A stretch of 64,000 nucleotides of DNA from Flavobacteriales bacterium (GTDB lineage: Bacteria; Bacteroidota; Bacteroidia; Flavobacteriales_F; PHOS-HE28). Shown here one piece after another: positions 6,850-36,434 of the stretch (position 1 is its first letter; each line of letters starts with the position of its first letter). The stretch covers positions 1,554,824 to 1,618,823 of the forward strand of contig JADJAA010000001.1 of the NCBI GenBank assembly GCA_016704485.1, in the 5' to 3' direction. The notes beneath the pieces are model-generated. The model was not told the origin of the DNA. It saw nothing but the letters and a program-made list of their open reading frames with translations, and made no database searches. The position numbers and the translations under genes were made by a program.

Positions 6850-9003
6850 TTGAACGATCTTCGACCCGAACTAGCGCCCAATGTTACTAGCGCCCCACAA
6901 ACCCATGGATCCTGTCCTATGCGCACCTTAGAGGAAGATGCCTTGCGCTTGTTGCGGAGTTCGGTAGGGGATACCAAGGCCACCTTCAGGGAAGGTCAAC
7001 TGGAAGCCATCGTCGCCCTGGTCCGTGAGCGAAAGCGCTTGCTGGTGGTGCAATGTACCGGCTGGGGCAAGAGCAATGTGTATTTCATCAGTGCGAAGTT
7101 GCTGCGCGAAAAAGGGCATGGACCCACCGTTATCGTTAGTCCGCTATTGGCTTTGATGCGCAACCAATTGCAGGCCGCAGCGCGCATGGAGCTGAAGGCT
7201 ATCACCATCAACAGTGCCAACACGGATGAATGGGAGACGCTGCAAGAGCAGGTGGTATCCGGTGAAGCCGATGTGCTCCTGATCAGTCCGGAACGACTGG
7301 CCAACGAACGTTTTATCGCCGAGGTGCTGTTGCCCATCGCTGGACGCATCGGCATGCTCGTGGTGGACGAAGCGCATTGCATCAGCGATTGGGGGCACGA
7401 TTTCCGGCCCGACTATCGGCGCATCATCGCGATCCTGAAACAACTGCCTGCCAACCTACCGGTACTGGGTACAACCGCCACTGCCAACCAACGCGTGGTG
7501 GACGATCTGAAGGTGCAACTTGGCGACCTCACCATACAACGTGGGACCTTAGTGCGTGACAGTTTGATGCTCGATGCTGTGCAACTCCCCGACCAAGCCG
7601 CACGCCTCGCTTGGCGGACGCACTACCTGCCCCTGCTCCCCGGATCCGGTATCGTGTACACCCTTACCGTGCGCGATGCGGAGCGCGTTGCCGAATGGTT
7701 GCAACAGAACGGGATCGAAGCAAGGGCCTACCATGCCTCCGTCGTTGATACCGAAGATGGCGATCTGCGCGAGCGCTTGGAGCAGCAACTGCTCGATGGA
7801 AGCATCAAGGCCTTAGTTGCCACCACGGCACTCGGCATGGGCTACGACAAGCCCGACCTGGGTTTCGTGATCCACTTCCAAGCTCCCGGCTCCATCATCG
7901 GCTACTACCAACAAGTGGGGCGCGCCGGAAGGGCGATCGAGAAGGCCTACGGGATACTCCTACATGGCGAAGAAGATGCTGAGATCCATGCCTACTTTCA
8001 AGAGAACGCTTTCCCGAACGAGTCGAATGTGCTGCAGATACTGAAGACTTTAGAAGGTGGCAACGGTCTTTCCATCCGGCAACTGGAGCCGACCATGAAC
8101 CTGCGCTACGGGCAGTTGGAACAGGCCTTGAAATTCCTGAGCATGGAGGACCCTGCGCCGGTGGTGTTGCAGGACCATCTGTGGAAGCGCACACCGGTGG
8201 CCTACACCTTGGACCATGCGCACATCCAGCGCCTCATGGAACTACGAGAGCGCGAACGTGAGCAAGTTGTGGCCTACGTGCAACACACTGGCTGCCGCAT
8301 GGAATTCCTTCAACAGGCCTTGGATGATGTCGTGCATGCACCCTGTGGACATTGCGCCAATTGCTTGGACAAGCACTTCAAGGCGGACATGCCCCCAGCG
8401 GAAGTGGCCCGCGCGGCTACCTTTCTGCGCAGCGCGGAGATGGTACTCACCTGTCCGAAGGCACTACCCGCAGGTGGCTTGGATGCGCTCGACATTAAGG
8501 GCAACATACCGCTGGAGTTGCGCCCGCAGCCCGGAAGGATCCTCTGCCGTTGGGGCGACTCCGGTTGGGGCAAGTTGGTGGCGCAACAGAAGCACGACGG
8601 ACACTTCAAAGACGAACTCGTCCACGCCCTTGCCGAAATGGTGAACGAGCGCTGGTGTCCGGATCCGCCCCCAATGTGGGTGACCTGTGTGCCCTCCCTT
8701 CGCCATCCGGAATTGGTTCCCGATCTTGCACGCCGATTGGCCGCCAAGTTGGAACTTCCGTTCCACAACGTGGTGGAAAAGACCCGCCAGAACGAGGCGC
8801 AGAAAGCCATGCAGAACCGCTACCACCAGTGCCATAACCTCGATGGCGCCTTCGCCATCGGTACGGTGCCCGAAGGGCCTGTGCTATTGGTGGACGATGT
8901 GGTGGATTCCGGCTGGACCATTGCCATTCTTTCGGCACAACTGCTACAGGCCGGTTGTACCTTGGTGTACCCTATCGCACTAGCAAGCACCTCCCATACC
9001 TGA
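6850..9003 (+). CDS. RecQ-family SF2 helicase fused to a C-terminal ComF/GntX-type phosphoribosyltransferase (PRTase) module
   Basis: Walker A CTGWGKSNVYF and DEAHCISDWGHDFRPDYRRI (RecQ DEAH box). Helicase C motifs are present (ALGMGYDKPDLGFVIHFQAPGSIIGYYQQVGRAGR). A Cys-cluster HAPCGHCANC is followed by a ComF-like stretch KTRQNEAQKAMQNRYHQCHNLDGAFAI and the PRPP-binding motif VLLVDDVVDSGWTIAI. The alternative start at MRTLEED is near 6916. Confidence 0.8.
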   Translation: MNDLRPELAPNVTSAPQTHGSCPMRTLEEDALRLLRSSVGDTKATFREGQLEAIVALVRERKRLLVVQCTGWGKSNVYFISAKLLREKGHGPTVIVSPLLALMRNQLQAAARMELKAITINSANTDEWETLQEQVVSGEADVLLISPERLANERFIAEVLLPIAGRIGMLVVDEAHCISDWGHDFRPDYRRIIAILKQLPANLPVLGTTATANQRVVDDLKVQLGDLTIQRGTLVRDSLMLDAVQLPDQAARLAWRTHYLPLLPGSGIVYTLTVRDAERVAEWLQQNGIEARAYHASVVDTEDGDLRERLEQQLLDGSIKALVATTALGMGYDKPDLGFVIHFQAPGSIIGYYQQVGRAGRAIEKAYGILLHGEEDAEIHAYFQENAFPNESNVLQILKTLEGGNGLSIRQLEPTMNLRYGQLEQALKFLSMEDPAPVVLQDHLWKRTPVAYTLDHAHIQRLMELREREREQVVAYVQHTGCRMEFLQQALDDVVHAPCGHCANCLDKHFKADMPPAEVARAATFLRSAEMVLTCPKALPAGGLDALDIKGNIPLELRPQPGRILCRWGDSGWGKLVAQQKHDGHFKDELVHALAEMVNERWCPDPPPMWVTCVPSLRHPELVPDLARRLAAKLELPFHNVVEKTRQNEAQKAMQNRYHQCHNLDGAFAIGTVPEGPVLLVDDVVDSGWTIAILSAQLLQAGCTLVYPIALASTSHT

Positions 9004-10223
9004 TGGACCTAAGACCGGACGACCAAGCCACCTTGCTGCTTACCGCGCACCTGCCCGGAGGCAACGCCGTGCAGCCGCTCTCCACCGGCGAATGGTCACG
9101 GTTCAGTGCGTGGTTGCTTGCACATGAGCACACACCGGGCGACCTGTTCATTGGCGATCCGAAGCACACGCTGGCCACCTTTCAGGACAAGACCATCACC
9201 CTGGAGCGTATCGCACCGTTGCTGGATCGCGGTTTCCAAGTTGCCTTGTTGCTGGAGAAGTGGCAACGTGCAGGGCTCTGGGTGATCACGCGCTCCTCGC
9301 CGGATTATCCGCAACGGCTCACCACCATGCTCGGCGACCAAGCGCCGCCCTTGTTCCATGGTGCAGGCGACCGCCGCAAGCTGGAGACCAAGGCACTTGC
9401 TGTGATCGGATCGCGCAACGCCGCCGAGGCCGATCTGCACTTCGCCCGCCAACTGGGCCACGCCGCCGCACAACAGGGCTGGTCCATCGTAAGCGGTGGT
9501 GCGCGCGGTGTGGACGAAGCCTCCATGCGCGGTGCCATCGAAGCCAGTGGTACCGTGATCGGGGTGGTGGCCGATAGCCTGCTGAAGATGGCCACCAGTC
9601 ACAAGTACCGCGATGCCATCCAACGCAGTGACATCGTCCTGCTCTGTGCCTCGCACCCCGAAGTGGGTTTCTCCGGGGCCAATGCCATGGCGCGCAACAA
9701 GTATGTGTACTGCCTAAGCCGTGCGGCCGTGGTGGTGTGCTCCGATGCCAACAAGGGAGGTACCTGGGCCGGCGCCACTGAGGACCTGAAGAAGAAGTGG
9801 GTGCCCGTGTGGGTGAAGCACCATCCCGATCCACGCAGCGGCAACCGCGCACTGGTGGATCGTGGCGCACAGCCTTTGCCCGATTCCGATCCGCATGCCT
9901 TGGACATGGAGGACCTCGCCAAGGGTAAACTCTCCAGCGCTCAACTCTTCGAACTGCCCATTGCCTCCGACGTTGCCGCCGTATACCAAGCCTCCGGAAC
10001 CACGGCCCCGAAAGAGCTCACCGAAGCGGATGAGATGGAAGCCATCCTCAAGGCACTTGCCACTCCCATGACCGTGAAGGCCCTTGCCAAACATATCGCC
10101 ATGGACGAGGCCCGCATCAGCCACCTGCTGGACCAATTGGTACACCTGCACAAAGTGGAACCACCAACTGGCCGATCACGCAGCTACGCCCTAGCGGGTC
10201 CGGATCTTTTTAGTGGGGAGTGA
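9003..10223 (+). CDS. DprA/Smf-family (SLOG Rossmann) DNA-processing protein paralog, translationally coupled to the upstream helicase-PRTase
   Basis: ATG at 9003 overlaps the upstream TGA (TGATG). The DprA core is present: LAVIGSRNAAEADLHFARQLGHAAAQQGWSIVSGGARGVDEASMRGAIEASGTVIGVVADSL...ARNKYVYCLSRAAVVVCSDANKGGTWAGA. The C-terminal region is winged-helix-like (MTVKALAKHIAMDEARISHLLDQL). Confidence 0.8.
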   Translation: MDLRPDDQATLLLTAHLPGGNAVQPLSTGEWSRFSAWLLAHEHTPGDLFIGDPKHTLATFQDKTITLERIAPLLDRGFQVALLLEKWQRAGLWVITRSSPDYPQRLTTMLGDQAPPLFHGAGDRRKLETKALAVIGSRNAAEADLHFARQLGHAAAQQGWSIVSGGARGVDEASMRGAIEASGTVIGVVADSLLKMATSHKYRDAIQRSDIVLLCASHPEVGFSGANAMARNKYVYCLSRAAVVVCSDANKGGTWAGATEDLKKKWVPVWVKHHPDPRSGNRALVDRGAQPLPDSDPHALDMEDLAKGKLSSAQLFELPIASDVAAVYQASGTTAPKELTEADEMEAILKALATPMTVKALAKHIAMDEARISHLLDQLVHLHKVEPPTGRSRSYALAGPDLFSGE

Positions 10224-10435: not shown

Positions 10436-10633
10436 TCAATAGTCATTATGTTCCAAGATCACCTCCGGCGATAGATCCCATACCATGCTCCCCACGTGGT
10501 AACTGAACCATGCGTTAAAGACTTTCCAGCTCCGGTCCACAGGCCAAGTATCCTCATCCGGGCAAGTGCCGAACAGTTCCATCTCGAAAATGAACGGAGC
10601 ATACGGCTTCACCACATCGGCAATGTCCTTCAC
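10436..10633 (-). CDS. Small hypothetical ORF immediately downstream of the 1610-aa helicase gene
   Basis: 65-aa ORF on the same strand, 30 nt after the giant gene's stop. No recognisable domain. Confidence 0.2.
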   Translation of the reverse strand: MKDIADVVKPYAPFIFEMELFGTCPDEDTWPVDRSWKVFNAWFSYHVGSMVWDLSPEVILEHNDY

Positions 10634-10663: not shown

Positions 10664-13600
10664 TCAACCCAACGTGAACTGCACGCGAGGCAATACCACT
10701 TCATAGCTCTTATCCTTCTCCTTATCGTACCAATGCACAATGTATTCTGCCGTAGCGCCTGAAACACGATATCCCTCATTTGCGAAACGGGGTAGTGTCG
10801 AGTCAATGAACTTGCGCGCGTAGAGCAGCACATTGCCGTTCCCGGTGCCAAGACCAAGTGCACTTCCGTTCGTGAATTGTTTCTCATCCGGCACCATATT
10901 GGAGCCCGCAGAAAGGGATGTGATCCGGTCGGAGTTATATGAACACGATCCCAGGTTCACCTCCTTCATACCAAGCACGTATTCAAGTTTATTGGGCCGA
11001 GGGTATACCACCTCATTCGTTTCTCTGATCAACGAGGCATGTTTGTAGGTGGGAAGGAACTGATCATTCGTGTGGATCACTAATTGGTCCATTGATCTTG
11101 TGCAGGCCACATAGAGTAGGCGGAGGTCTTTGTCCTCCTCCATCGGGTAGTTCTTCTGGTATACGAACACGTTATTGAACTCCTTGCCCTTGCTCTTGTG
11201 CATGGTAGATACATGCACCACTCCTTTCTGTGGTTTCACGGCGTCGCTGATCCTGATCTCACGCACGAAAGCATCCCATTCTGATAGGTCATGTCGCCCT
11301 TGGTTCCCTTTCTTGAAGAGCGCAAGTAGGTCTTTCATGTCCGCCCGCAATGGATTCCCCTTGAGCCCTTCTATATATTCCTTAACGGCATTGTCCCAGA
11401 CCTCCTTGGGAATAACACCAATTCCTGGATGGCGTTCACGAACGAATTGGCCGAACGCTCGGACCTCGCGCAAGCGACCTACGGGGAAGTCATCCGAGCC
11501 ACCGATGTAGCGCGCCTTGACGCCATGTTGCTCCAGCATGGCCGTTGCCATGATCGCCTCATTGTTCGTGCGGGTCAATACACTTGTCGTGCCGGTGAGC
11601 GTCGACCGTGCGACGTCCTTTACCAGTCCTGTCAAATGATAGCCGCCGGAATATCGGACCACACGTTGCACTCCCGGCCGATCGTCATTTGCTACAAGTT
11701 CCTCACCATCTTTTATCCGGACTTTGATCTTGGAGGCAATATGATTCGTCAATCGAACGATCGTCTCCTTGCTCCGGTAATTCACAAGTAGGCTATGCGA
11801 TCGCGCCTTGAAGCGGGTTCGGAATTCCGACATGAATCTTGGCGATGCACCGCGCCATTCATAGATGTTCTGGTCGTCATCACCCACTGCGATGATGCGT
11901 GGTTTCTCTGCGGTCTCAGCAAGCATCTGGATCAGTTGCCATTGCTCCTGATCAACATCTTGGAATTCATCCAATACGATCACGCTTTTGTTCGCAATGG
12001 AGGTGACATCCACTTCGCCGGCATGGATAGCCGCCATGGTGCGGCTGATCACAGTTTCCGACCGGTCCAGATCGCCGAGCTGACCCATCAGTTCAAAACA
12101 CAAGCCATGGAATGTCGTGATCCGGATAAGGCCTCGATACTCCGGAACCATGGCATGGACGCGGTCGCGGAACTCCATTGCCGCAGCCTTCGAGAACGTG
12201 AGCATAAGGAATTGCTCAGGCTTCACATCCTCAATGAGCAGAAGGCTCGCCACCTTATGGACAAGGACCCGGGTCTTACCGCTCCCCGGACCCGCAGCAA
12301 CAAGGATCTGGTCCGTACTATCATTGACCACTCCCAATTGCTTCGTATCCAGATCCCCGAAAAGCTCAGTGAATCTGCTTCGGGTGATAGGCCGTGTGAT
12401 ATCGGTGCTGCGCTTCGGAAAGTATTTCTGCACGAAGACATCGTGCTCGAAGCGGAAATAGTCATCTACGAAAGATAACGCGGCCTGAACGCTTTCCATA
12501 CGGCGTGCTGCATACTCTCCCACCATATGGATCTGTTCCACCCTGTTCTGGTAATGATGCCTCAGGTTACCGTAATCCTCTTGGGTGTATTGCTTCCGTA
12601 CGTTCTGCTCCACGCGCTCCACATTCATCCGTTGGTACATGACCATGAACCCGTCCTGCAGGCTCAGTACATTCATGCCGTGTAGGAACAGCAATGCATC
12701 GGCAATGGCTTTCAGGTCATGCTCTTTGCCGAACATCCCTTCGGCCATTGCCGCTCTCAGCCCCAACAAGGAGAATTTCACACGCAATTCCTGCTTGGCA
12801 TCGTCAGCGAGCTTCGACGTATCGGGTACTAGTTTCTCAAGTTGTTCGAAACAAGCCAAGGCAAGTGCTTGGCGCGCTTCCACCTCCTTCCGTAGTTCTT
12901 CCGGGTCCTTCAATAGTGTTATCCTGTAGCTATCTGCTTGCCGGTCCAGGCGCTTGATCCCTACCAGTCTTCGTTTCTTCCAGATCAGGAACAGTGGCTT
13001 CAGATCCTCTATCCTGCTGTCCACCCCCTGGTCAAGAATGCCTTGGTTCAGCGCGCGATAGGTCACGGTCATTTCCTGTTCGGCCAGGAGCCCTACCAAT
13101 GCCTTTTCGGTATTCAGGATGCGTTGCAACCGTGCTTTGGAACCCGCACGTGGTCGACCATCCACATAGGCGGTCAGGTCCTGCTCATCGTTCAAGACCG
13201 CGATGTTCCGCAACAGTTGTACGGTCTCGATCACATCACGCAACTTCATTCCGAGATGACCCGCGACCACATCGACTTGCGATACACCCACTCCATCCTC
13301 ATCCGGTTTCACTAGTCGCTGCAATACCCGTATGCAATTCTCCTTCTGTTTTTCTGTTAATCCGGTATTGTCCCGTACTATCCGTAAGGCATCCTCCAGT
13401 CCTTTGACCATTAGACCGGTAGCGAAAACCTGCGGGGAGTTCAGCGTGCGCTTTATGTAGCCTCGGTCCTCTAGGGCTGCAAGGGATGCGGCCACGCGGT
13501 TCTGGATATCACGCATCTCTTCATCCCATCCCGCGGCTTTGGCAAGCTCCGAAGCCGAACGACTGATCTTGTCCCGGATCTTGGTCATGCCTTTTACCGC

Positions 13601-15496
13601 ACGCCATACCTGCTGTATCTCCTTTTGATTGAGCTTGGTCCGTTGAAGCAAGTGGAAATGGCCGCCCAGGTCATTCTCATTGTATAGGATGTAGCACTTG
13701 GCATCAATGTCTTTGTTGCGGCCAGCGCGACCGGCTTCCTGTACGTAGCTCTCCAGCGAACTGGAGATGTTGTAGTGGATGACGGATCGCACATCCTCCT
13801 TGTCCACACCCATACCGAAAGCCGAGGTTGCCACCATGACATCCACCTCACCATCCATGAAGCTCTCCTGATTGAGCTGCTTCTCTTCGCGCTCCATCTT
13901 GCCATGAAATCCGCGGACCGATATCCCGATCGCCTTGATGCGATCTACAAGCTCATCAACGCGTTTGGTCCGGCTTGCATACACGATCGCGGGTTTCTCA
14001 CAGGTGTTCAGCAGGCCCAATAACACACGTTGACGGGCTTCGGCAGTGGTGTCCTCCACAGGAAGGACCTCGTACTCCAGGTTCTCCCGCCGCGCTTGGC
14101 TTATATAGGGAATAAGGTCCAGACCAAGGCCATTCTTGAAATAGTTCCGGATGTCTTCCACCACTTGCGGCTTGGCGGTGGCAGTAAAACAGGATACGGG
14201 TATGGGCTTCTCGCGCCCAAGGTCGATCTGAAGCTGTTTCAGATAGGGCGCGATGTACAAGTAGTCCACCCTGAAATCATGCCCCCAACTGGAAAAGCAA
14301 TGGGCCTCATCTATAACGAACCGCGAGATCTGTCTCTTCTGCAGCAGACGGGAAAGCGTGGGAGAACGAAGCGTTTCCGGAGCGATATACAACAGGTGGA
14401 TCCCGCCATCCTCTACTTGCTTCAGGACTTCTTGCCGCTCCAATGGGGAAAGTAGTCCGCTCAGATGGGCCGCACGCACTATCTGGTGCCGATGTTCCAG
14501 CACCTCCACCTGATCTTTCATCAGCGAAACCAACGGCGAGATGACCACGGTGAGCGAACGGGTAAGCGCACCTTCCATTAGAGCAGGCAGCTGGAACGTG
14601 AGCGACTTGCCTCCGCCAGTGGGGAAGACGGTCAGGACCGACTCTCCGGCCAACGCTGAACCGACGGCCTTTTCCTGCACTCCAGCCTGGCTTTCACCGT
14701 CGAACAATCGGAAGTGATCATACCCGAAATACTCCTTCAGTCCGCGCTTTGCATCCATCCAGGTCGCACAGTACTCGCAGCCCGCATCATTACACTGTGC
14801 GAACCGCAGGTTATGCAGTACCTGTTGGGTAAAAGGCAAGCTATGTACGACCCAAGGGGGTAGGATGGATGCTTCATCGGTCGTGTCGATCAGGGCCAGC
14901 GCATGCGCGAGCTCTACAGGTCTATCAGTAGTAAAGCGTTGCAGCGGAGCAGAAGCGCAAATGAGGCCTGAGTAACGCGAGGTGATCAAGTCGGCTACGT
15001 CTGTCTTGTCCTGCTCATGTGCCGCAAGCTCGATCATGCCATCGTACCCTTCCTGTCCGGAAAGCAAACCGGCATAGACCGAACGCATGACAACAGGCAA
15101 ACAATTGAATGTACCTAAAAGTTCTTCCAATAGTTCGCGACACAGTTTTGCGTCACTGAGCGGATCGTTGTCGCCGTCCTCGTTGCGGATCTTGTAGCCC
15201 TTCACCAACTTGTGATAGGGCTTATTGGCGTACAGCAATGCACTCCAACACAAAGTATCCAAGAGCACCTTACCCTTTAATACATTCTGCCCCATGTGCT
15301 TCCGAAGCACAGGCGCATCATGGCCAACAAGGTTGTGCCCGGCGACAATGGTTGCCCTGTCTATCAGCTTCTTAAGTCCATCCAGCTTACGCTTGTGGAA
15401 TTCGCTGCTCCCGAGCACAGCTCCTACGTCCAGGAGTTTTTTACTCCGCTGATCTAACTCGAGATCCAGAATGAGGACCTTGTCCAGTGCGTTCAT
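10664..15496 (-). CDS. 1610-aa multidomain protein with DnaQ-like 3'-5' exonuclease, RecQ-like SF2 helicase and UvrD-like SF1 helicase domains
   Basis: N-terminal exonuclease-like LILDLELD...AGHNLVGHD. RecQ core: FPTGGGKSLTFQLPAL, VIDEAHCFSSWGHDFRVDY, AFGMGVDKEDVRSVIHYNISSSLESYVQEAGRAGR. UvrD core: VAAGPGSGKTRVLVHKVA, ITTFHGLCFEL, VLDEFQDVDQEQWQLIQ, AVGDDDQNIYEWRGASP, VSTMHKSKGKEFNNVFV...LLYVACTRSMDQLVIH. Confidence 0.85.
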   Translation of the reverse strand: MNALDKVLILDLELDQRSKKLLDVGAVLGSSEFHKRKLDGLKKLIDRATIVAGHNLVGHDAPVLRKHMGQNVLKGKVLLDTLCWSALLYANKPYHKLVKGYKIRNEDGDNDPLSDAKLCRELLEELLGTFNCLPVVMRSVYAGLLSGQEGYDGMIELAAHEQDKTDVADLITSRYSGLICASAPLQRFTTDRPVELAHALALIDTTDEASILPPWVVHSLPFTQQVLHNLRFAQCNDAGCEYCATWMDAKRGLKEYFGYDHFRLFDGESQAGVQEKAVGSALAGESVLTVFPTGGGKSLTFQLPALMEGALTRSLTVVISPLVSLMKDQVEVLEHRHQIVRAAHLSGLLSPLERQEVLKQVEDGGIHLLYIAPETLRSPTLSRLLQKRQISRFVIDEAHCFSSWGHDFRVDYLYIAPYLKQLQIDLGREKPIPVSCFTATAKPQVVEDIRNYFKNGLGLDLIPYISQARRENLEYEVLPVEDTTAEARQRVLLGLLNTCEKPAIVYASRTKRVDELVDRIKAIGISVRGFHGKMEREEKQLNQESFMDGEVDVMVATSAFGMGVDKEDVRSVIHYNISSSLESYVQEAGRAGRNKDIDAKCYILYNENDLGGHFHLLQRTKLNQKEIQQVWRAVKGMTKIRDKISRSASELAKAAGWDEEMRDIQNRVAASLAALEDRGYIKRTLNSPQVFATGLMVKGLEDALRIVRDNTGLTEKQKENCIRVLQRLVKPDEDGVGVSQVDVVAGHLGMKLRDVIETVQLLRNIAVLNDEQDLTAYVDGRPRAGSKARLQRILNTEKALVGLLAEQEMTVTYRALNQGILDQGVDSRIEDLKPLFLIWKKRRLVGIKRLDRQADSYRITLLKDPEELRKEVEARQALALACFEQLEKLVPDTSKLADDAKQELRVKFSLLGLRAAMAEGMFGKEHDLKAIADALLFLHGMNVLSLQDGFMVMYQRMNVERVEQNVRKQYTQEDYGNLRHHYQNRVEQIHMVGEYAARRMESVQAALSFVDDYFRFEHDVFVQKYFPKRSTDITRPITRSRFTELFGDLDTKQLGVVNDSTDQILVAAGPGSGKTRVLVHKVASLLLIEDVKPEQFLMLTFSKAAAMEFRDRVHAMVPEYRGLIRITTFHGLCFELMGQLGDLDRSETVISRTMAAIHAGEVDVTSIANKSVIVLDEFQDVDQEQWQLIQMLAETAEKPRIIAVGDDDQNIYEWRGASPRFMSEFRTRFKARSHSLLVNYRSKETIVRLTNHIASKIKVRIKDGEELVANDDRPGVQRVVRYSGGYHLTGLVKDVARSTLTGTTSVLTRTNNEAIMATAMLEQHGVKARYIGGSDDFPVGRLREVRAFGQFVRERHPGIGVIPKEVWDNAVKEYIEGLKGNPLRADMKDLLALFKKGNQGRHDLSEWDAFVREIRISDAVKPQKGVVHVSTMHKSKGKEFNNVFVYQKNYPMEEDKDLRLLYVACTRSMDQLVIHTNDQFLPTYKHASLIRETNEVVYPRPNKLEYVLGMKEVNLGSCSYNSDRITSLSAGSNMVPDEKQFTNGSALGLGTGNGNVLLYARKFIDSTLPRFANEGYRVSGATAEYIVHWYDKEKDKSYEVVLPRVQFTLG

Positions 15497-15553
15497 TAGC
15501 TGGGCGCAATGGCGTGGTGGATGAAACGGGCTGCGGAAGAGCTATGCATGGAT

Positions 15554-15697
15554 CACAAATTCAACACTCCTTCAATAACCCGAAAACTCTCCAACCCACT
15601 TTCTAGATCTTCCACGACCTCGGTGGTGCATTCCGTGGTCTGCGCTTGAACCAGCGTAGAAAGAATTACAGTTAGGAAGAGTAGGAGAGTTCGCATG
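15554..15697 (-). CDS. Possible 47-aa secreted peptide between the GmrSD and giant helicase genes
   Basis: MRTLLLFLTVILSTLVQAQTTECTTEVVEDLESGLESFRVIEGVLNL, a signal-peptide-like N-terminus. It falls below the ORF-track length cutoff and could be spurious. Confidence 0.2.
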
Positions 15698-15719: not shown

Positions 15720-17534
15720 TTACAAGCCTTCGTAATAGCCCTTGATCTTTTGTGCCATCAGGTGTTTGCGTTCCTCCAAAAAGGTCTGGTAGCTTTTTAC
15801 ATCATAGTCGAAGATAGCTGTTGGGATGCAGTTCTCGCGCATGTTCTTGCGCAGGTCGGCCATGTTACGCAGACCACCGATGTCACCTTTGCCTTGCTCA
15901 AGCTTGTCCGCAACGGTCGTAAAGTATACCGCTGGCGTTTTGTCACCGATCTTGATGTTTCCGGGTTGGTCCATGTACACCAGATTGCTCACGCGATTGT
16001 ACAGACTGCGACCCAAGCCATTCTTCTTCAACAAGCTGCGGGGGAAGATGTGGTGTACATCTCCGCGTGTAAGCAACATGTCGTTCACGGTGAGGTGCCG
16101 ACTGAACAGACCATGGTCGTTCGCGTTGGCTTGGGCAGCTAGGAATACGCCGAAGAACGGACTGCTCATCACTGGGCTTTCCAAATGCCCTGGAAGTACA
16201 GAATTCCAGAACGCATCACTCAGGTCACCTGCTTCGATCTCGGCTAAGTAGTCGGAAGCATTGCGTTCGTTCAGCCGTTTGATGTCAAAGTCGAATTGGC
16301 TTTCGAAGCTGCCCGTTGCACGTTCGGTCAAGATGCTCATAACGTACCAACGGCGCACCAAGCTTTGTAATTCATTGCCTCGGTCCATTCCTTGACGACG
16401 CAAATGCAGGTACAAGAAATAGGCGAAGTTGATCGCGTTCTTACTGCGCATCAACTTGCTGCGCACGAAGCCTGCCGACCGAAGGATCAACGTGAAGAAC
16501 TTGAAGTCAGTCTCATTCATGAAGCGGGCCACACCAGCGTCCAACTGCTTGAAAGAATTTTCCATAATGGTCTCCTCGAACGTGCGGTTCACGAAATCGC
16601 GTCCACTAAGTAGGCTGACCAGGTCGCTCATTTTACCACGACCGAATTCCACACCGCTGGCAACACGCAACATATCCGTGTAGGCCGGGTCATAGAGATC
16701 TTCGGTTTCGCTGCGTAGCCACTTCATGTTCTTGAAGTGCTCCGTGGCTGCGAACTCGGGGTCGTTCTCCTTGATGTGCTCGTAGTACTGCGGCTCTTTG
16801 CTCAGGTGGCAGAAGTAATCGATGGCCTTGCGCAGAACCGGACCACCATGGTGCTCGTTGCTGGCGATCTTGCTCATGGCAAAGTCCGCTTGGCTCAATA
16901 CGACTCCTTTGCTGTTGATGCGGATGAAGATCTCCGTTACCGTCTCTATGTCCAGTTCGTGGTTCAGTTCGATCACGCCGATCTGCCGCTTGGCTAAATT
17001 GGCCAATTGCCCAAGGCTGCTCTCCACAAGCTCGGCATCTGCATCCGGGTTTGCTGCGGTGTATGCTTTGTTCAATTTGATCAAGCTGAAACCACTCCCA
17101 AAGAACACCGCGATATCCGGCAACCACGCCTTGTCCTTTTGGATGATGGGCGTTTGCACCTCGAACTTCTGGGTGATGGGATGGAACGCGATCTTGATCT
17201 TGATCCGCGCATAATCCTTGTCCACCACGTATTCATCCATTAAAGCAGCACGCAATGCTGTTATGCGTTGTTGCCCATCGATCAAGATCTTCTTGCCGCT
17301 GCCAATGCTGCCATCTTTCAAGCGCACATCCGGGTTCTTCCATGTAATAATGTAGCCCACTGGAAAACCTTGGTAGATGCTATCCATCAGATCGCGGACT
17401 TTGCTCTTATCCCAAACGAATGGGCGCTGGATCTCGGGTATCGCGATCTCTTTCTCTTTCACCCACGACAATAAACTTTCGATAAGCGGCTGTTGGATAC
17501 TGTATTTCTGTGTTTGCATGATCGTGTTGAACAA
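15720..17534 (-). CDS. GmrSD-family type IV (modification-dependent) restriction endonuclease, DUF262 + DUF1524 fusion
   Basis: N-terminal DUF262/ParB-like motif IPEIQRPFVWDKSKVRDLMDSIYQGFPVGYII...LIDGQQRITAL. C-terminal His-Me finger of DUF1524 (DVHHIFPRSLLKKNG). Confidence 0.8.
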   Translation of the reverse strand: MFNTIMQTQKYSIQQPLIESLLSWVKEKEIAIPEIQRPFVWDKSKVRDLMDSIYQGFPVGYIITWKNPDVRLKDGSIGSGKKILIDGQQRITALRAALMDEYVVDKDYARIKIKIAFHPITQKFEVQTPIIQKDKAWLPDIAVFFGSGFSLIKLNKAYTAANPDADAELVESSLGQLANLAKRQIGVIELNHELDIETVTEIFIRINSKGVVLSQADFAMSKIASNEHHGGPVLRKAIDYFCHLSKEPQYYEHIKENDPEFAATEHFKNMKWLRSETEDLYDPAYTDMLRVASGVEFGRGKMSDLVSLLSGRDFVNRTFEETIMENSFKQLDAGVARFMNETDFKFFTLILRSAGFVRSKLMRSKNAINFAYFLYLHLRRQGMDRGNELQSLVRRWYVMSILTERATGSFESQFDFDIKRLNERNASDYLAEIEAGDLSDAFWNSVLPGHLESPVMSSPFFGVFLAAQANANDHGLFSRHLTVNDMLLTRGDVHHIFPRSLLKKNGLGRSLYNRVSNLVYMDQPGNIKIGDKTPAVYFTTVADKLEQGKGDIGGLRNMADLRKNMRENCIPTAIFDYDVKSYQTFLEERKHLMAQKIKGYYEGL

Positions 17535-17620: not shown

Positions 17621-20600
17621 TCAAGCACTGCGCTCACCCGGCTGTGCGTTCCCTTGCACCCACTCCACTACCGAGATGATCTTATCCTGATCATTCTCAT
17701 TCGGGAATAGGCCGAAGATCCCTTCTTGGTGTAGGTCCGTGAACGTTGAACCCGGCTCTGCGAGCATGCGTTTGTCGATCACGCCGTTCACCGTGAGGTG
17801 CCGAATGATGGAATCGATGAAGTGGATCTGCGTAGCACTGAAGATGGAGCCGGACAAGAATTCGCCGAAGGCTGCTTTTGCTGCGCCTTCATCAAGGCCG
17901 ATGATGCTGCGAATGAAATAGCCTAGTGGCCGTTCCTCGCCAAGTTCCTTCATCAAAGCCTCCTTCGTGCCGCGTTCGTCTCCATCGAACAGGATGCGTT
18001 CCAGTTCCACTAGCTCAGCGGTCGTGATCGGCTCATTGGTGTATAGTTTGTGAATGGTAAGCTGGTGTTTGTGCGAGCGGATGAACTCCTCTACACGCAT
18101 CCGATAGCTACGCATGGTGTAGCTACCTGGCATGGAGATGATATCCTCACCCTCGCTCACCAACTCATCTCTCAGGTCCGAGTATACCACTTTGCGTTCC
18201 TCGCGCGGTATCAAGCGCACTAGATCGCGCAATTGTTTTCGTGTGAATTCCAAGGCTTCCAGACCGAACACAGCGGCTCGTTGTTGTTGATCATTTGCGA
18301 CATCAAGAACTGCTTTGATCGCTGGATACCGCTCCTGCACTACGGGAATGTTGGAGAGCCGGGCAAGCTGTGTGGCGGTTGAGGCCAACGTGCGGAACAG
18401 GCGATCTACTGACGGCGCCTCTTGGGCCACAGCAATTTCCAGATCGAGCATAAGTAGGTCAAATCGTTTGGCCAGCTCGTCCTTGTCCGGTAGTTCGATC
18501 AAGTGACCAACGGTCTCGAACAGATCACTGATCCCGCTTTTTGATAACGCATTCCATGCGGTACGTTCACGGTAGTGATCGAGCACACGTTGCGCAGGAC
18601 GAATGCGCACGGTGTGCCGCAATTCCCAAAGTGCCTGGACCCAACTATGCGCACTATTCAAAAGCTCAACGCGTAGTGCTTGATCTTTTGGTACCTGATG
18701 GGCTGGTTCACGCAGTTGTTCACTAAGTAGGATAGTTGCTTCAAAGATCCGTTGCGATAGGCTGGGGGAGCGCACAGGTTCAATGCCTTCCGGCCGCAGG
18801 TTGAAGAAGCTGTAGTTGCCACAGAGATCGAAGATCCTGAAGTTCTCCTTGTGCTGGCCGGGACCGAACAGATCCGGGCATAAGCGTGTGCCGCGGCCAA
18901 CCATTTGCCAGAACTTGGACTTGCTATAGACCGGTTTAAAGAACACCAAGTTCACGATCTCAGGAATATCAATACCCGTATCCAACATATCCACACTCAC
19001 GGCGATCTGTGGATACCGGTCCTTATCACTGAAATTATCTATGATGCTCTGGGAGTATTGCTCCTTACTGTGTACCACCGACATGAAATGCCCACCGTAC
19101 TGCGGGAACTGATCTTCAAAACGGTTCTGTATGGCCCGGGCATGGTCTATGTTCCTTGCAAAGACAACGGTCTTGCCCAGCTTCTCACCACCTTCCACTT
19201 TGATCCCGTTCTCCATCACATAGGCCAACACCTGATCGATGGTGTTCGAGTTGAAGAGCCAGTTATTGATCGCGGGCGCTCCGATCTCTTCGGGTATATT
19301 CCCTTGGTCGTCCCGGAAGGTCTCTTCGTAATGTGTCCTATCGCTCTCACTCAGGTCATCGTAGCGGATACCGCGTTGCAGAAAGCCGAAGTCCACTGCT
19401 TTGCCAATGGGCGGCACCAGAAAACGATCGGCTACGGCCTGCCCTAATTCATAGAACGATGTCGGGTTATGCTCTTCGCAATCGAACAAGGCATAGGTAT
19501 CCCGATCCCCTTGGTCGTGTGGTGTTGCAGTAAGGCCGACCAACAAGGAATCGAAATAGGTGAAAATAGCACCGTACCGATCGTACACTGAGCGATGCGC
19601 CTCATCCACAATGATCAGATCGAAGTGACCGACACCGAAGGTCTTCACATCATCACTCCGCACTTGGTCCACGCGGTTCATTACCGTGGGGTAGGTGCTG
19701 AAGACCACCCGTGCGCTTTCATCATAGCGCTGTTTGGTGAGATCCAATGTGGTAACATTCGGCAGGTTCTTCTCAAAGGCCCGTTTTGCCTGTGTGACCA
19801 AGGCATTGCGATCAGCGAGAAAGAGCACACGCTTCGCCCAATTCGCTTTCAGTAGAAGGTCCACTAACGCGGCAACGGTACGCGTCTTGCCAGCCCCAGT
19901 GGCCATTACGATCAATGCTTTTCGCTTAAGACCGCGCATGCCATCTTCATCCACCCAACTTTCTGCAACCCGCTTGATCGCTTGATGTTGGTAATAGCGT
20001 TCCACGATCTGCTCATCGATCGGCACATGCCGAATGTTCACACGACCGATACGCCGATCAACGACCCGTTGCAATTCGTCCCGCGTGTAAATGCCCTGTA
20101 CAGCGCGTGGACCATAAAAGGTGTCATCCCAGATCCACGTATCGAAACCGTTGCTATAGAATATCACCGGGCGCTGTCCGGTCATGCGTTCCAGGCAATC
20201 AGCGTAAAGGCTTGCTTGCACACGGCCTTGTTGGGCATCGTGGGTGGTGCGCTTGGCCTCTACTACGGCCAGCGGTTTACCATCTGCACCCCAGAGCACG
20301 TAATCTACCTTGCCGTTGCCGTTGGGATTGGTGCTCAATGGCATCCCTGTTACCGGGTATTCGATCACGTTGGATGCGGCAGGGTCCCAGCCTGCTTCGC
20401 GCAACAGTTCATCAATGAAGAGTAACCGTGTATCCGCCTCCGAATATTCAGAAGCAGGTATGGGTATGTTCTCATGGCGCTCCTTGCGCTCCTGGATCGC
20501 TGCCAGGCGTTCTGCCAATATCTGCTTTTCTCCTTCTAATTTCAACCGTTGCTCGCGCTCGGTCTCCATCGCTACACGTTGCGCTTCATAACGCTCCTGT

Positions 20601-21079
20601 AACTGTTGAAGCTCCGCGCTGTTCGGAACTTCCTTCACTTTCACTTGTACTATGAGTGCCTCCTCTTGGAATGTTCCTACCTCGATGTCGAATGCGCTGT
20701 ACGTACGACCCATCCATTTCAAGAACCGGAACAAGAGGCGCAATGAGGCTACGCTCTGGCTCTCCACCACCTTCTTATCATGCGCAGCGGCATTGCCGGT
20801 ACGCCGGATGTACTGCAGGTCGATGTAGATGGGTGGTGGTATCAGTACCCGGAAGGACCGTTCATCCATCAACGCGCTCAACTGGCTGTTGTAAGGGCGC
20901 TGTAGGTCACTGTCGTTATCATACAGCCAGTGCACGGTACGTTCCAACGCACGGCGGGCATACACGGCAGAGGCGATCGGTGCGGCCAAGGCATACCGCT
21001 CCGCGTCCATGGCCTCCTTCGCAATGGAGGGCCACTCTTCAACGAGGAAGCGGAAGTTGCTCGGGGTGCTCAACGACAT
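17621..21079 (-). CDS. hsdR: Type I restriction enzyme R subunit (HsdR) with N-terminal DUF4145-like extension
   Basis: HsdR_N nuclease region SEADTRLLFIDELLREAGWD...KVDYVLWGADGKPLAVVEAKR. SF2 motors: MATGAGKTRTVAAL and DLIIVDEAHRS. The 1152-aa length fits HsdR. Confidence 0.85.
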   Translation of the reverse strand: MSLSTPSNFRFLVEEWPSIAKEAMDAERYALAAPIASAVYARRALERTVHWLYDNDSDLQRPYNSQLSALMDERSFRVLIPPPIYIDLQYIRRTGNAAAHDKKVVESQSVASLRLLFRFLKWMGRTYSAFDIEVGTFQEEALIVQVKVKEVPNSAELQQLQERYEAQRVAMETEREQRLKLEGEKQILAERLAAIQERKERHENIPIPASEYSEADTRLLFIDELLREAGWDPAASNVIEYPVTGMPLSTNPNGNGKVDYVLWGADGKPLAVVEAKRTTHDAQQGRVQASLYADCLERMTGQRPVIFYSNGFDTWIWDDTFYGPRAVQGIYTRDELQRVVDRRIGRVNIRHVPIDEQIVERYYQHQAIKRVAESWVDEDGMRGLKRKALIVMATGAGKTRTVAALVDLLLKANWAKRVLFLADRNALVTQAKRAFEKNLPNVTTLDLTKQRYDESARVVFSTYPTVMNRVDQVRSDDVKTFGVGHFDLIIVDEAHRSVYDRYGAIFTYFDSLLVGLTATPHDQGDRDTYALFDCEEHNPTSFYELGQAVADRFLVPPIGKAVDFGFLQRGIRYDDLSESDRTHYEETFRDDQGNIPEEIGAPAINNWLFNSNTIDQVLAYVMENGIKVEGGEKLGKTVVFARNIDHARAIQNRFEDQFPQYGGHFMSVVHSKEQYSQSIIDNFSDKDRYPQIAVSVDMLDTGIDIPEIVNLVFFKPVYSKSKFWQMVGRGTRLCPDLFGPGQHKENFRIFDLCGNYSFFNLRPEGIEPVRSPSLSQRIFEATILLSEQLREPAHQVPKDQALRVELLNSAHSWVQALWELRHTVRIRPAQRVLDHYRERTAWNALSKSGISDLFETVGHLIELPDKDELAKRFDLLMLDLEIAVAQEAPSVDRLFRTLASTATQLARLSNIPVVQERYPAIKAVLDVANDQQQRAAVFGLEALEFTRKQLRDLVRLIPREERKVVYSDLRDELVSEGEDIISMPGSYTMRSYRMRVEEFIRSHKHQLTIHKLYTNEPITTAELVELERILFDGDERGTKEALMKELGEERPLGYFIRSIIGLDEGAAKAAFGEFLSGSIFSATQIHFIDSIIRHLTVNGVIDKRMLAEPGSTFTDLHQEGIFGLFPNENDQDKIISVVEWVQGNAQPGERSA

Positions 21080-21301
21080 GGAGGCGCAATTGACGATATT
21101 CTAAGCACTTGTACAATTACAAGATGCGAATAAGTCGAGCCTATGATGTGCGGCTTGTGATGGTAACTGCCGCGTGTGGCCCTTTACGGCTCTAAAATAC
21201 ATGTGGATACTTCAGAACCGGTCTTCTTGCTGCTAAGAGAATGCTAATTCCTCTGAAGCACTACATTGCGGACATGTGCACCCACACACGCCTGCTATTA
21301 G

Positions 21302-23375
21302 TTGCGATCGCCATTTTTGGTCGTAGGGCTATGCACGGCGCAACAAGATGGACCAACCGAGGAGGAGCAGCCAACAATTATCACGGCGGAACAACTGCAG
21401 GACTTTAATTCGGTAGTGCCCGGCATGGGTCGACAGATCCCGGGAATATACTTGTCCAACTACGGGCTTCTGTGTTACCACTTTGGGGATGATGGCACAT
21501 TCGCATCGCGCGACTTGAATGATTCCGGTTGGGTCGCAGCCGGTTCATGGTATGCGCCCATCACGTTGCCAAAGGAACAATTGGACACTGCGCAAGCCCT
21601 GTGGGTGCGGTACCATCTTCTCTGCGACAGTTCCCTGCGCGGTAGCCCATTGACACTAAGTTTGGGATCCATTGCCGGTATTGAGATCTTTTTGAACGGC
21701 CATCGGTTGGTGCACGTCCGGGAATTGCCGCCGGTTGTTCATGATCTTGATCAACCAATTTGGGACACGCTGCGGCGCTTTACCCTACCGATCACATTCG
21801 CGTGCCAAGGCGAACCAGAAGTGCTCGCTATTCGGATAGATCCGGCAAGGAATGGAATTCCCTACCCCACTTTGCACTATACGAACTTCGCCTACAACGT
21901 ACAGCTGTCCGCGATGCACTATGGTGTCTTCATCGGGGTCAACGCCATCATCTTTTGCTCGCCTTGGTCCTCTGGTCTTTGGACCGGAATGATAAGCAGT
22001 GGTGGCTACTGGCCCTGCTGGCCTTCGTTACAGGATCAGGGTATGCGCCAAGTTGACCAGTGAGATGGGCTTGTTGGGTTTGCCGTGGCCCACCATCCAG
22101 GTCATTGGCATTATTGACAAGATCCTCCTTCTATGGCCTATGTATGTGCTTATCATGGTCTTGTGGCGCATGCTAGGTGGGTTATCAAGTCGGCGCGCCT
22201 TTTGGCTCACCTTCGGTGTCTTGTTCGTTTCGGCAACCAGCGCTGGCCGCTTGTACTTTTTCGGGAAGATCTCCTGGTCATTTTCGGAGATCACGGGGGA
22301 ATACAGCATAGATGCAGGTTTGTCCGATGATCAGTGGCCACTTTTGGTCGCACTGGTGGTTGGTGCGGTACTGCGCTATTCCATAGCGCTCTGGTTCGCG
22401 ATCGAATTGATCCGACTTGGCATTCGCCTGGTGCGTAAGAAGGGTTTCGGACGTTGGATCGGGGCAGGGGCGCTTGTGTCCAGTCTGTTGAGTTTCCTCT
22501 TGACGTGCTTCGGCCTGGTCACTGAAATACCATCTACGACATGGCTCACACTTTCCGATTATCTCGCCTATGTTGCTGTGCCGGTTTCAGTCGTCATTTA
22601 TCTGGCCGTCACTGCCGCTCAAAACAACAAGCTGGTAGCGCGTCAACGGGATGATCTTGATCGCGAGGTGGACGACCGTACCGCCGAACTTGTAGCGGAG
22701 AAACAAGCGGTGTTGCGCGAGAAAGAACGCAGCGATGAACTACTCCTCAACATCCTGCCATCCGAAGTGGCGGAAGAACTAAAAGCCAACGGTTCGGCAA
22801 AGGCGCGGGACTTCGATCCCGCCACCATCCTGTTCACCGACTTCAAAGGCTTCACGGAGCTATCCGTGCAATTAAGTGCTCAGGATCTGGTGGCCGAGAT
22901 CAATACGTGTTTCGAGGCGTTCGATGGGATAATTTCCCGGTACGGTGTGGAGAAGATCAAGACCATTGGCGATGCTTACATGGCGGCAGGTGGCGTGCCT
23001 GATCCTCTGCGCGGATCACCGGCAGGTGTTGTAGAGGCCGCGTTGGAGATGCAGGAATTCATGGTCAGGTACAAAGCGCAACGAACAGCCTTGAACAAAC
23101 CGGCCTTCGAGATGCGTCTCGGTGTTCACACCGGCCCAGTGGTGGCGGGCATCGTGGGTGTGAAGAAGTTCCAGTACGATATCTGGGGCGACACCGTGAA
23201 CACGGCCAGCCGCATGGAGAGCAATAGCGAAGTGGGCCAAGTAAACATCTCGCAGAGCACCTATGAACTGGTGAAGAACGTGCCGGGACTTGCCTTCACA
23301 TCGCGAGGCAAAATACCAGTGAAAGGGAAAGGAGAGCTGGAAATGTACTTCGTAAAGAGAGGGCCGGTCGCATAG
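21302..23375 (+). pseudogene. 7TMR-DISM-type membrane adenylate/guanylate cyclase, apparently disrupted by frameshift(s)
   Basis: ORF 21302..22063 (frame 2) encodes a 7TMR-DISMED2-like extracellular domain and ends in a TM helix. ORF 21999..23375 (frame 0) encodes the remaining TM helices plus a class III cyclase domain (FTDFKGFTELS...IKTIGDAYMAAGG...GDTVNTASRMES). TM-like peptide also reads through in frame 1 (HHLLLALVLWSLDRNDKQWWLLALLAFVTG) between them. This suggests at least one and probably two frameshifts near 21930-22060. Confidence 0.55.
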
Positions 23376-23390
23376 CCATTTCCGATCCCT

Positions 23391-23460
23391 ACTCCCCCCA
23401 AAACGCCCCCTGCAGCAAAAGCCCGAACAAGTCCTCGCTCCGGCGTAGGTTCGCAGTGGA
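23391..23460. repeat. Orphan copy of the hsdS 3' terminus (direct repeat copy A, ~85% identical to 24314-24385)
   Basis: On the minus strand this short open frame encodes ...RSEDLFGLLLQGAFWGE*, homologous to the real HsdS C-terminus QSEGLFGSLLQGAFRGELGN*. It lies just 3' of the 324-aa gene. Confidence 0.7.
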
Positions 23461-23476
23461 ACACCGGTAGTGCTGT

Positions 23477-24274: not shown

Positions 24275-24302
24275 TATGTCCGTGCTGCGTGATCCTCTTC
24301 CG

Positions 24303-36426: not shown

Positions 36427-36434
36427 TGAAGAGC

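Follow-up and report, generated by a model that had tools for sequence, protein, structure and literature searches.

Several bacterial defence systems pair a helicase with a nuclease, among them Gabija, Nhi, Hachiman and Cas3 (bioRxiv 10.1101/2025.11.12.688083). Hna, an ExoDinG-like protein in which an exonuclease is joined to a superfamily 2 (SF2) helicase, provides abortive-infection defence as a single protein and acts as a 3'-5' exonuclease on single-stranded DNA (ssDNA). [quoted passage not shown] By analogy, Hna is the closest functional precedent for the protein examined here, whose gene lies at positions 10664-15496 of a 64,000-nucleotide (nt) stretch of a Flavobacteriales bacterium (contig JADJAA010000001.1, positions 1,554,824 to 1,618,823), hereafter called the window. 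This protein of 1610 amino acids (aa), which we call the tri-enzyme, joins in one chain a predicted DEDD-type exonuclease, a RecQ-type SF2 motor core, a winged-helix-like region and a UvrD-type superfamily 1A (SF1A) motor core. In our judgement the chances are evenly balanced that it is a stand-alone, horizontally mobile helicase-nuclease directed against foreign DNA (phage, plasmid), and thus a candidate single-gene defence system, and not the recQ or uvrD of the cell.

The gene is a complete open reading frame (ORF) starting with ATG (Table 1). A sequence-only reading of the window had called it as one 1610-aa ORF, and this was borne out both by the ORF listing and by homologues of ~1600 aa, which align over 100% of its length at 44-77% identity. 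The identical protein is present on 22+ metagenome contigs, and one metagenome contig matches the window at 99.94% identity. A DNA match to the gene was not found in E. coli genomes. Pfam gave no match to the N-terminal, middle and C-terminal regions even at E<=10. Searches of the PDB by phmmer and hmmsearch with the same three non-helicase regions returned chance-level matches only, with the exception of a weak match of the middle-region profile to a Fur winged helix (E=5e-3), and no PADLOC model (2.0, 2023) covers the full-length protein or any of these family-specific regions. Profile searches together with structure prediction nevertheless set bounds for the exonuclease, RecQ, winged-helix and UvrD parts, although the C-terminal 130 aa matched nothing. 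On sequence and model grounds, the tri-enzyme belongs to the RecQ family at the subfamily level, to the SF1A UvrD-like helicases at the motif level, and to the DEDD exonuclease superfamily by predicted fold and acidic residues. When the window protein was compared with 69 species-level sequences from both deep clades of the family (70 sequences in total), every catalytic motif, whether of the exonuclease or of the two ATPases, was 96-100% conserved, which argues that all three activities are under selection.

The AlphaFold2 (AF2) model of the N-terminal domain, made with 15 homologues as input, had a predicted local distance difference test (pLDDT) score of 87.6 and the topology beta1-3/alpha/beta4/alpha/beta5/alpha. 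This order, beta-beta-beta-alpha-beta-alpha-beta-alpha, is that of RNase H-fold exonucleases. Nearly all of the top 50 Foldseek matches in the PDB were DEDD 3'-5' exonuclease domains (probability about 1). The best was the exonuclease of S. aureus DinG (E=5e-3), and the others included the exonuclease domains of Pol II and other family-B polymerases, Cap18, RNase T and TREX1. In BFVD, six matches were found at E<=1e-3, all of them polymerase exonuclease, RNase H-like or DnaQ folds, with a viral polymerase exonuclease domain as the best (E=1.5e-4). The motifs are Exo I, D11-x-E13; Exo II, H54-N55-x3-H59-D60; and Exo III, N110-x-P112-x2-D115. The four acidic residues sit at the expected secondary-structure positions and are highly conserved (D11, 97%; E13, 96%; D60, 99%; D115, 100%). 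These results support the DEDD-like exonuclease called by the sequence-only reading, which no sequence model matched. The fifth catalytic residue of DEDD enzymes, His in the DEDDh group and Tyr in the DEDDy group, stands 4-5 residues before the Exo III Asp. In the tri-enzyme family this canonical place is occupied by Asn/Asn (positions 110 and 111). The domain also has a D80-T-L motif and a conserved but poorly modelled loop, P93-Y-H95-x3-K99, whose Y94-H95 may stand in for the missing residue.

The exonuclease is followed by a helical module in which C180, C235, C240 and C243 are invariant in 121/121 homologues. Judging from this pattern, the module is probably a Zn-binding element placed just before motif 0 of the RecQ core. 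C180 and C235-x4-C240-x2-C243, with a consensus LDP after them (14767-14958 of the window, aa 180-243), resemble the RecQ Zn-binding motif CxxCxxC-LDP; here, however, the cysteines are N-terminal to the helicase core, whereas in RecQ they are C-terminal to it. A weak, nonsignificant alignment was also seen between the cysteine region and residues 486-507 of PsyrT, the RecQ-like protein encoded next to the tri-enzyme gene.

In the RecQ part, Pfam placed DEAD at residues 273-448 and Helicase_C at 495-594. The score of 283.8 bits with TIGR00614 (recQ_fam; cut-off, 219.8) places it in the RecQ family, and among solved structures it matched E. coli RecQ (1oyw, E=2e-53), 4tmu (about 1e-53) and the WRN helicase (about 6e-39). 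Motif 0, motif I (PTGGGKS, with K297), motif II (DEAHC), the aromatic loop (SWGxDFR, with W404), TATA and QEAGRAGR were recognized; among these, PTGGGKS, DEAHC, WGxDFR, TATA and QEAGRAGR are 100% conserved. The canonical RecQ equivalogs scored far lower than their cut-offs (312.8 versus 640.2 bits for TIGR01389 and 237 versus 1015 for PRK11057), with only profile positions 4-352 of 591 aligned. Since TIGR00614 aligns only over its positions 3-356 of 470, the RQC and HRDC domains appear to be missing; Pfam found neither in the tri-enzyme, and the winged helices after the core were not detectably RQC. Among the PADLOC models, the core (residues about 247-651) scored 327 bits with DpdF (PDLC02864) and 240 bits with PsyrT. 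The sequence-only reading had noted a paralogous RecQ core in the product of 6850-9003, with DEAHC and SWGHDFR in both, and the two are indeed related (31% identity over 365 aa, E=8e-37); that neighbour is PsyrT.

The UvrD part was matched by PF00580 (1.3e-40), AAA_19, UvrD_C and UvrD_C_2 over residues 1050-1477 and carries the motifs of superfamily 1 (SF1). Among solved structures its core matched UvrD (3lfu, E=7e-25), PcrA (1pjr) and D. radiodurans UvrD (4c2u). The motifs are AGPGSGKT (I, with K1074), DExQD (II), VGDDDQNIY (III), NYRS (IV), and T-x-H-K-x-KG-x-EF and YVA-x-TR (V/VI), of which GPGSGKT, DExQD, GDDDQ, NYRS and VA-x-TR are 96-100% conserved. The NCBIfam models for UvrD/PcrA/Rep matched in two pieces, with profile positions about 93-209, which correspond to domain 1B, lacking a counterpart; 33 aa (1140-1172) stand in their place. 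Their equivalog cut-offs were far from reached (132-139 versus 911-1144 bits). Apart from a short first part, UvrD_C was aligned only at positions 266-348 of 350. From these two gaps in the alignments, we take the UvrD-like motor to be a stripped 1A/2A core, without 1B and most of 2B. GajB models scored up to 165 bits, on this module only. The full RecQ and UvrD cores of the sequence-only reading therefore hold for the motor cores but not for the accessory domains.

The same reading had the two helicases translocate with opposite polarity. This is wrong by textbook knowledge, since the RecQ and the UvrD/PcrA/Rep (SF1A) families both translocate 3' to 5'. Both motors of the tri-enzyme would thus be expected, from family membership, to move 3' to 5', and so could not share a DNA end in the manner of RecB and RecD, with one motor on each strand.

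Between the two motors lies the middle region, which the sequence-only reading had described as ~300 aa and uncharacterised. It is about 430 aa long (about 631-1044), and Pfam and PADLOC did leave it unmatched. However, its AF2 model (pLDDT, 78; predicted template-modelling score, 0.49) has a repeated H-E-H-H-E-E pattern, and the Foldseek matches, all weak (E >= 0.01), were winged helices of RPC3, TFIIIC, ORC, PadR and MarR. In this model the region forms four tandem winged-helix-like units with a helical end, and its likely role is that of a spacer that separates the motors and binds DNA. The last 130 residues of the tri-enzyme are conserved across the family, and neither Pfam (with 20 family C-terminal tails included), PDB profiles nor PADLOC gave a match to them.

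To follow the family, a profile of the middle region was searched against 1.84 billion representative proteins, and 918 clusters were found at E<=1e-3, 306 of them at E<=1e-30. In every full-length match, a protein of ~1600 aa, the region spans about residues 605-1050, and it is confined to such proteins, so that there is essentially one architecture. Neither split genes nor alternative architectures were found among the best 150 representatives, and the short matches look like contig-truncated fragments. With one genome scanned per species, the gene was carried by at least 592 species genomes, mostly of Bacteroidota. The others listed were Halioglobus, Acinetobacter sp. MD2 and Desulfosporosinus, and metagenome-assembled genomes (MAGs) of Fibrobacteres, Balneolaceae, Desulfobacterales and Eubacteriales. 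The family is thus found mainly in Bacteroidota and is scattered in Proteobacteria, Firmicutes and Fibrobacteres. Where databases name it, the name is "RecQ family ATP-dependent DNA helicase" (NCBI; Gene Ontology [GO] term, DNA recombination); the sequence family is already in the databases under this generic name and is functionally unexplored. In the literature searched, an exonuclease-RecQ-UvrD fusion was not found described.

For comparison of gene neighbourhoods, 80 species-level loci were kept, of which 73 hold a family ORF, most of ~1600 aa. A few copies, in Massilibacteroides and some MAGs, are broken inside domains, which suggests occasional gene decay (pseudogenes) or assembly errors. 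In Massilibacteroides vaginae (L087, 8168-12988) and in loci L036, L038 and L083, the gene is present as two ORFs, with the break in the UvrD part or in the middle region; a broken copy in an isolate genome reads, for example, as 1156 aa + 428 aa. A second family copy in Psychroserpens (L024) was considered and rejected, the other 1615-aa ORF being a SprB/PKD adhesin.

A neighbour-joining tree of the gene conflicts with taxonomy at many places. Halioglobus and Ekhidna fall inside Flavobacteriaceae, Sphingobacterium inside the Flavobacterium clade, and Amniculibacterium inside Chitinophagaceae, and Acinetobacter, Desulfosporosinus, Desulfobacterales, Eubacteriales and Fibrobacteres are scattered among Bacteroidales and Chitinophagaceae. 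This conflict indicates that the gene has been moved repeatedly by horizontal transfer, also across phyla. The family was found on 21 plasmid records and in none of 50,697 phage records; of the 2.9 million contigs of IMG/VR, only 9 carried it, for the most part close to an edge of the contig. On plasmid pACIB of Aliarcobacter cibarius (L095, 6994-12952) the gene directly adjoins parA/parB and rep, and in Acinetobacter sp. MD2 (L054, 6086-13003) it adjoins a filamentous-phage G2P replication gene. A plasmid of Bacteroides finegoldii carries it near SSB and ParA genes.

The phyletic distribution and the neighbourhoods of the fusion were points that the sequence-only reading had proposed to check. 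Besides the wide but patchy occurrence described above, no neighbour of any size is conserved, the commonest neighbour cluster being present in 6 of the 80 loci. In relatives, the gap to the neighbouring gene has a median of 225 nt on the upstream side and 133 nt on the downstream side. With no conserved neighbour or small ORF and gaps typically of 130-230 nt, the unit is a single gene.

What recurs around this gene is restriction-type genes, and GmrSD and McrBC, both for modification-dependent restriction, were seen repeatedly. In the relative with 77% identity, the gene lies between McrBC and DarTG; in that with 75% identity, it comes after GmrSD and a type I system with embedded TIR and CBASS (SMODS plus S_4TM) genes. 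The Winogradskyella copy adjoins a type I system, AbiEii and a reverse transcriptase gene, and the Cellulophaga copy an Eco57I-type enzyme, GmrSD, RNase H and PLD. An AAA_21-DUF4276 pair was also found among the neighbours of relatives. In Desulfosporosinus sp. UBA8487 (L057, 4068-18605), three giant helicase-nuclease genes stand in a row, coding for a PLD-ResIII-DUF3427 protein (1038 aa), the family protein (1602 aa) and a DUF4011-AAA_11/12-MTES_1575 restriction endonuclease (1673 aa). Of the contexts annotated with Pfam, 5 of 8 were defence islands. Among 32 loci, most of them from the window's clade, 122 immediate neighbours were counted, and about 20 of these had restriction- or defence-type domains: SLFN-g3 helicase (3), McrBC (3), AAA_5 (3), N6_Mtase (2), GmrSD (2), ResIII (2), Fic (2), HindIII, DUF4238 and DUF1016. 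By BLAST, a restriction-modification (R-M), McrBC or GmrSD homologue was found within about 8 kilobases (kb) in at least 13 of 54 long loci, a lower bound because the seed set was small. The two deep clades of the family differ in this respect. In the window's clade, made up of marine Flavobacteriia and relatives, GmrSD, McrBC or type I R-M genes often stand next to the family gene, and the neighbours are mostly housekeeping genes in the Flavobacterium/Chitinophagaceae/Bacteroidales clade; the link to defence genes is plainly the stronger in the half of the family to which the window belongs.

In the window itself, the tri-enzyme gene lies between a PsyrTA pair and GmrSD and is co-oriented with GmrSD and hsdR, as the sequence-only reading had it (Table 1). 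Beyond GmrSD follow hsdR, an inserted cyclase gene, hsdS, hsdM, an N6-methyltransferase/HATPase fusion gene, a radical-SAM gene, a WYL-WCX regulator gene and a Septu pair. Three contigs of the same species were available. The type I R-M system is present in L001 and L002; L003 keeps the tri-enzyme gene, GmrSD and PsyrTA and has DUF1643, PDDEXK_5, DUF3644, DarTG and an MmeI-type enzyme in place of the type I system. Such a swap of flanks at the strain level is the modular turnover typical of defence islands. Two small ORFs flank the gene, one downstream and one upstream. The downstream one is the tiny ORF of the sequence-only reading; it exists, but like the upstream one it was seen only in the same strain (L001-L003). 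No small ORF flanking the family gene is conserved in about 70 other loci, and the tiny downstream ORF gave no match to a PADLOC model. Both were rejected as functional partners, since they are strain-specific and absent from all other loci, and probably play no such part. Upstream of the start codon, TGAATTTG has one mismatch to the Bacteroidota -7 element TAnnTTTG; scans for sigma-70 promoters and intrinsic terminators around the gene gave nothing useful.

Table 1. Coordinates of the tri-enzyme gene, the predicted parts of its product and other features of the window
Feature	Position	Strand	Basis or remark
Tri-enzyme gene	10664..15496	(-)	Complete ATG-start ORF, 1610 aa + stop; ORF listing, translation
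Predicted DnaQ-like (RNase H fold) DEDD 3'-5' exonuclease domain, aa 1-134	15095..15496	(-)	AF2 model, Foldseek, conserved residues
Helical module with four invariant cysteines, aa 135-250	14747..15094	(-)	Helices well predicted in AF2 model
RecQ-family SF2 helicase core, aa 251-630	13607..14746	(-)	Pfam, TIGR00614, structure matches
Four winged-helix-like units (about 640-960) and helical segment (…QQIHxVGEYA…), aa 631-1044	12365..13606	(-)	AF2, Foldseek
UvrD/PcrA-like SF1A motor core (1A/2A), aa 1045-1480	11057..12364	(-)	Pfam, NCBIfam, structure matches
C-terminal domain (…GY…VEY.V.WY…YEVVLPR…), aa 1481-1610	10667..11056	(-)	Conserved across tri-enzyme family
PsyrTA pair	6850-10223		
PsyrT, RecQ-like toxin (RqlH-type)	6850-9003	(+)	PADLOC, 952 bits
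PsyrA, DprA-like antitoxin (RqlI-type)	8955-10223	(+)	PADLOC, 415 bits
Tiny downstream ORF	10436-10633	(-)	59-65 aa
Upstream ORF	15553-15696	(-)	47 aa, signal-peptide-like start
-7-like element	15556-15563	(-)	60-67 nt upstream of tri-enzyme start
GmrSD	15720-17534		
Type I R-M system	17621-27004		
hsdR	17621-21079		
Guanylate-cyclase-domain gene	about 21241-23376	(+)	One 711-aa ORF in near-identical contig L001; two frames in the window (21302-22063, 21999-23375)
324-aa ORF	23477-24451		
hsdS	24303-25448		Type I R-M
hsdM	25445-27004		Type I R-M
Stretch with N6-adenine methylase-GHKL fusion gene	28213-33354	(-)	Fusion protein of 898 aa
Radical-SAM protein	30972-32282		After methylase-GHKL gene
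WYL-WCX regulator	32344-33354		After methylase-GHKL gene
Septu system	35458-38822		
PtuB of Septu	35458-36426	(-)	
795-aa Septu protein	36435-38822	(-)	N-terminus matches PtuB models, 402-772 PtuA models

Several other features of the window were noted. The PsyrTA pair is complete and converges on the 3' end of the tri-enzyme gene. The type I R-M system is interrupted, with hsdR set apart from hsdS/hsdM by the 324-aa ORF and the oppositely oriented cyclase gene. In the window this cyclase gene is split into two frames by 3 insertions or deletions at 99.86% identity, either as a pseudogene or through sequencing error. The methylase-GHKL (HATPase_c) fusion also has matches to type I specificity subunits; together with the radical-SAM and WYL-WCX genes, it may form a further, unclassified defence module. 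The Septu system is in a low-GC stretch (44-48% GC at 34-42 kb). The window organism also carries Por_Secre_tail (type IX secretion) genes, which mark it as one of the Bacteroidota.

The intact architecture, the single-gene organization, the mobility, the turnover of the island and the recurrent restriction-type neighbours argue for an accessory gene engaged in conflict over foreign DNA. What the protein acts on, which way each motor moves, how the modules are coupled and the role in defence itself are inferences, and the working might be as follows. The winged-helix array and the C-terminal domain would anchor the protein to DNA in which ssDNA or a 3' end is present, e.g., replication or recombination intermediates of an invader. 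The RecQ-like SF2 motor and the stripped UvrD-like SF1A motor would unwind the DNA or reel it in; alternatively, one of them may act as a switch that depends on ATP, a role reported for Hna and GajB. The N-terminal DEDD exonuclease would then degrade the exposed 3'-ended strand. The motors might follow one another along a single strand, might each draw one of the two strands, in opposite directions, or might share the work as a motor and a switch. We put forward only tentatively, as something that could well prove wrong, the fuller proposal that the tri-enzyme is a widespread system against phages or plasmids, so far unrecognised and encoded by one gene (at least 590 species, mainly Bacteroidota), in which same-polarity SF2 and SF1A motors, tethered by winged helices, feed a 3'-5' exonuclease on one DNA, for instance by drawing its two strands opposite ways or by one motor gating the other; such a mechanism would be new among helicase-nucleases.

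A number of observations weigh against a role in defence. This role rests on genomic context, which is mixed: 3 of the 8 Pfam-annotated contexts were plain housekeeping ones, and 98 neighbours in 25 loci of Flavobacterium, Chitinophagaceae and Bacteroidales were mostly housekeeping genes (Era/EngA GTPases, oxidoreductases, pseudouridine synthases) and in few cases of a defence type, with partial synteny common to Flavobacterium species. The counts of defence neighbours lack a matched background, so the association is suggestive and an enrichment is statistically unestablished. As no PADLOC model covers it, the tri-enzyme is not a recognised defence system. With the fifth DEDDh/y residue off its canonical place, exonuclease activity is not certain, and the figure of at least 592 carriers is a lower bound on prevalence. 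The dedicated DNA-degrading or DNA-surveillance machine that the sequence-only reading had preferred to a housekeeping enzyme therefore keeps the support of the island, of the lack of a conserved neighbour and of horizontal transfer, but it loses the arguments from polarity and from the tiny ORF and has to accommodate the housekeeping neighbours in the distant half of the family.

These housekeeping contexts and the partial synteny would fit an accessory enzyme of DNA repair or replication restart, WRN- or ExoDinG-like, that acts on forks, gaps and recombination intermediates of the host and has no immune role. All three modules come from classical repair families, the exonuclease-RecQ order is the arrangement of WRN and that of exonuclease and SF2 helicase the arrangement of DinG, and the NCBI name and GO term point the same way. 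B. subtilis DinG, described in PMC12525004 as mitigating replication stress, also counts in its favour. We nevertheless consider a pure repair enzyme rather unlikely, because the distribution is patchy across phyla with a gene tree incongruent with taxonomy, neighbours are never conserved across genera, the gene lies repeatedly inside R-M, McrBC or GmrSD islands whose flanks turn over between strains, the scores are far under the RecQ and UvrD equivalog cut-offs, and the RQC, HRDC, 1B and 2B accessory domains of the housekeeping enzymes are missing.

The horizontal transfer that speaks against a repair enzyme is also what would be expected if the gene served mobile elements themselves, in replication, establishment, competition with rivals or anti-restriction for plasmids or integrative elements. 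Carriage on 21 plasmid records, the pACIB copy beside parAB and rep, the B. finegoldii copy near SSB and ParA and the Acinetobacter sp. MD2 copy next to G2P all agree with this. Plasmids, however, commonly carry defence genes too, so that plasmid carriage cannot separate such a function from defence against foreign DNA. Most copies are chromosomal, no integrase, relaxase or conjugation neighbour is conserved among the 80 loci, and phage records and IMG/VR contigs are almost devoid of the family (none and nine, respectively), which makes a mobile-element function improbable. Finally, the relationship of the RecQ core to the adjacent PsyrT, including the 240-bit PADLOC score, and the 59-65-aa ORF coming after the gene might suggest a toxin of a toxin-antitoxin-like pair analogous to PsyrT/RqlH, with the tiny ORF as its antitoxin. 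Since this ORF and the 47-aa upstream ORF are confined to one strain, with no counterpart conserved in about 70 other loci, no partner of any size is conserved and the tiny ORF matches no PADLOC model, this idea is very improbable and largely refuted.

If the tri-enzyme does defend against foreign DNA, a large and easily tested single-gene system would be added to the repertoire of Bacteroidota, whose immunity is, to our knowledge, much less explored than that of Proteobacteria. If it is a repair enzyme, bacteria would have a WRN-like exonuclease-helicase that carries one motor more, and helicase research would still gain from it. Whichever holds, the current label hides two of its three predicted activities. 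According to the literature and databases searched, it would be the first studied enzyme with an SF2 RecQ motor, an SF1A UvrD motor and a proofreading-type exonuclease in one chain, and it raises the mechanistic question of why one protein would need two 3'-to-5' motors.

Identification of the tri-enzyme as a canonical RecQ, UvrD, DpdF, PsyrT, GajB or Hna was rejected after the defining features of each were compared and found wanting, yet each known system shares something with it. Like Hna/ExoDinG, it is the product of one gene and unites in a single chain an SF2 ATPase with a 3'-5' exonuclease of the DEDD fold, and the best PDB fold match of its N-terminal domain is a DinG exonuclease. Its SF2 part, however, is RecQ-type and not DinG/XPD-like, a winged-helix array, an SF1A motor and a C-terminal domain are added, and its exonuclease region matches no PADLOC model; it is not a member of that group but may work alike. 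With WRN, it shares the order of a DEDD-fold 3'-5' exonuclease at the N-terminus and a RecQ-family core after it. WRN is a eukaryotic protein that has RQC and HRDC domains and an active site of the DEDDy type, whereas the tri-enzyme lacks RQC and HRDC by sequence, has Asn at the Exo III His/Tyr position and has a UvrD motor appended, so the resemblance is probably a convergent domain assembly. As in RecBCD, AddAB and AdnAB, two ATP-driven DNA motors and a nuclease activity would be combined in one machine. Those complexes are multisubunit enzymes with PD-(D/E)XK (RecB-type) nucleases, and the motors have opposite polarities in RecBCD (SF1A plus SF1B) and are two UvrD-like motors in AdnAB; in contrast, the tri-enzyme is one polypeptide with a DEDD nuclease and with SF2 and SF1A motors that are both expected to move 3' to 5'. 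Gabija consists of the OLD nuclease GajA and the UvrD-like helicase GajB. The UvrD-like module matches GajB, and both systems occur in defence islands, but no GajA/OLD neighbour is conserved in the 80 loci and the nuclease of the tri-enzyme is fused and of a different fold. PsyrT/RqlH and DpdF have the RecQ-like core in common with it, and a true PsyrTA pair adjoins its gene. Only the motor core matches PsyrT, at about a quarter of the score of the adjacent true PsyrT (240 versus 952 bits), with no DprA-like antitoxin partner; for DpdF, the NCBIfam score is 224 against a cut-off of 550, and the neighbours include no dpd (7-deazaguanine) cluster.

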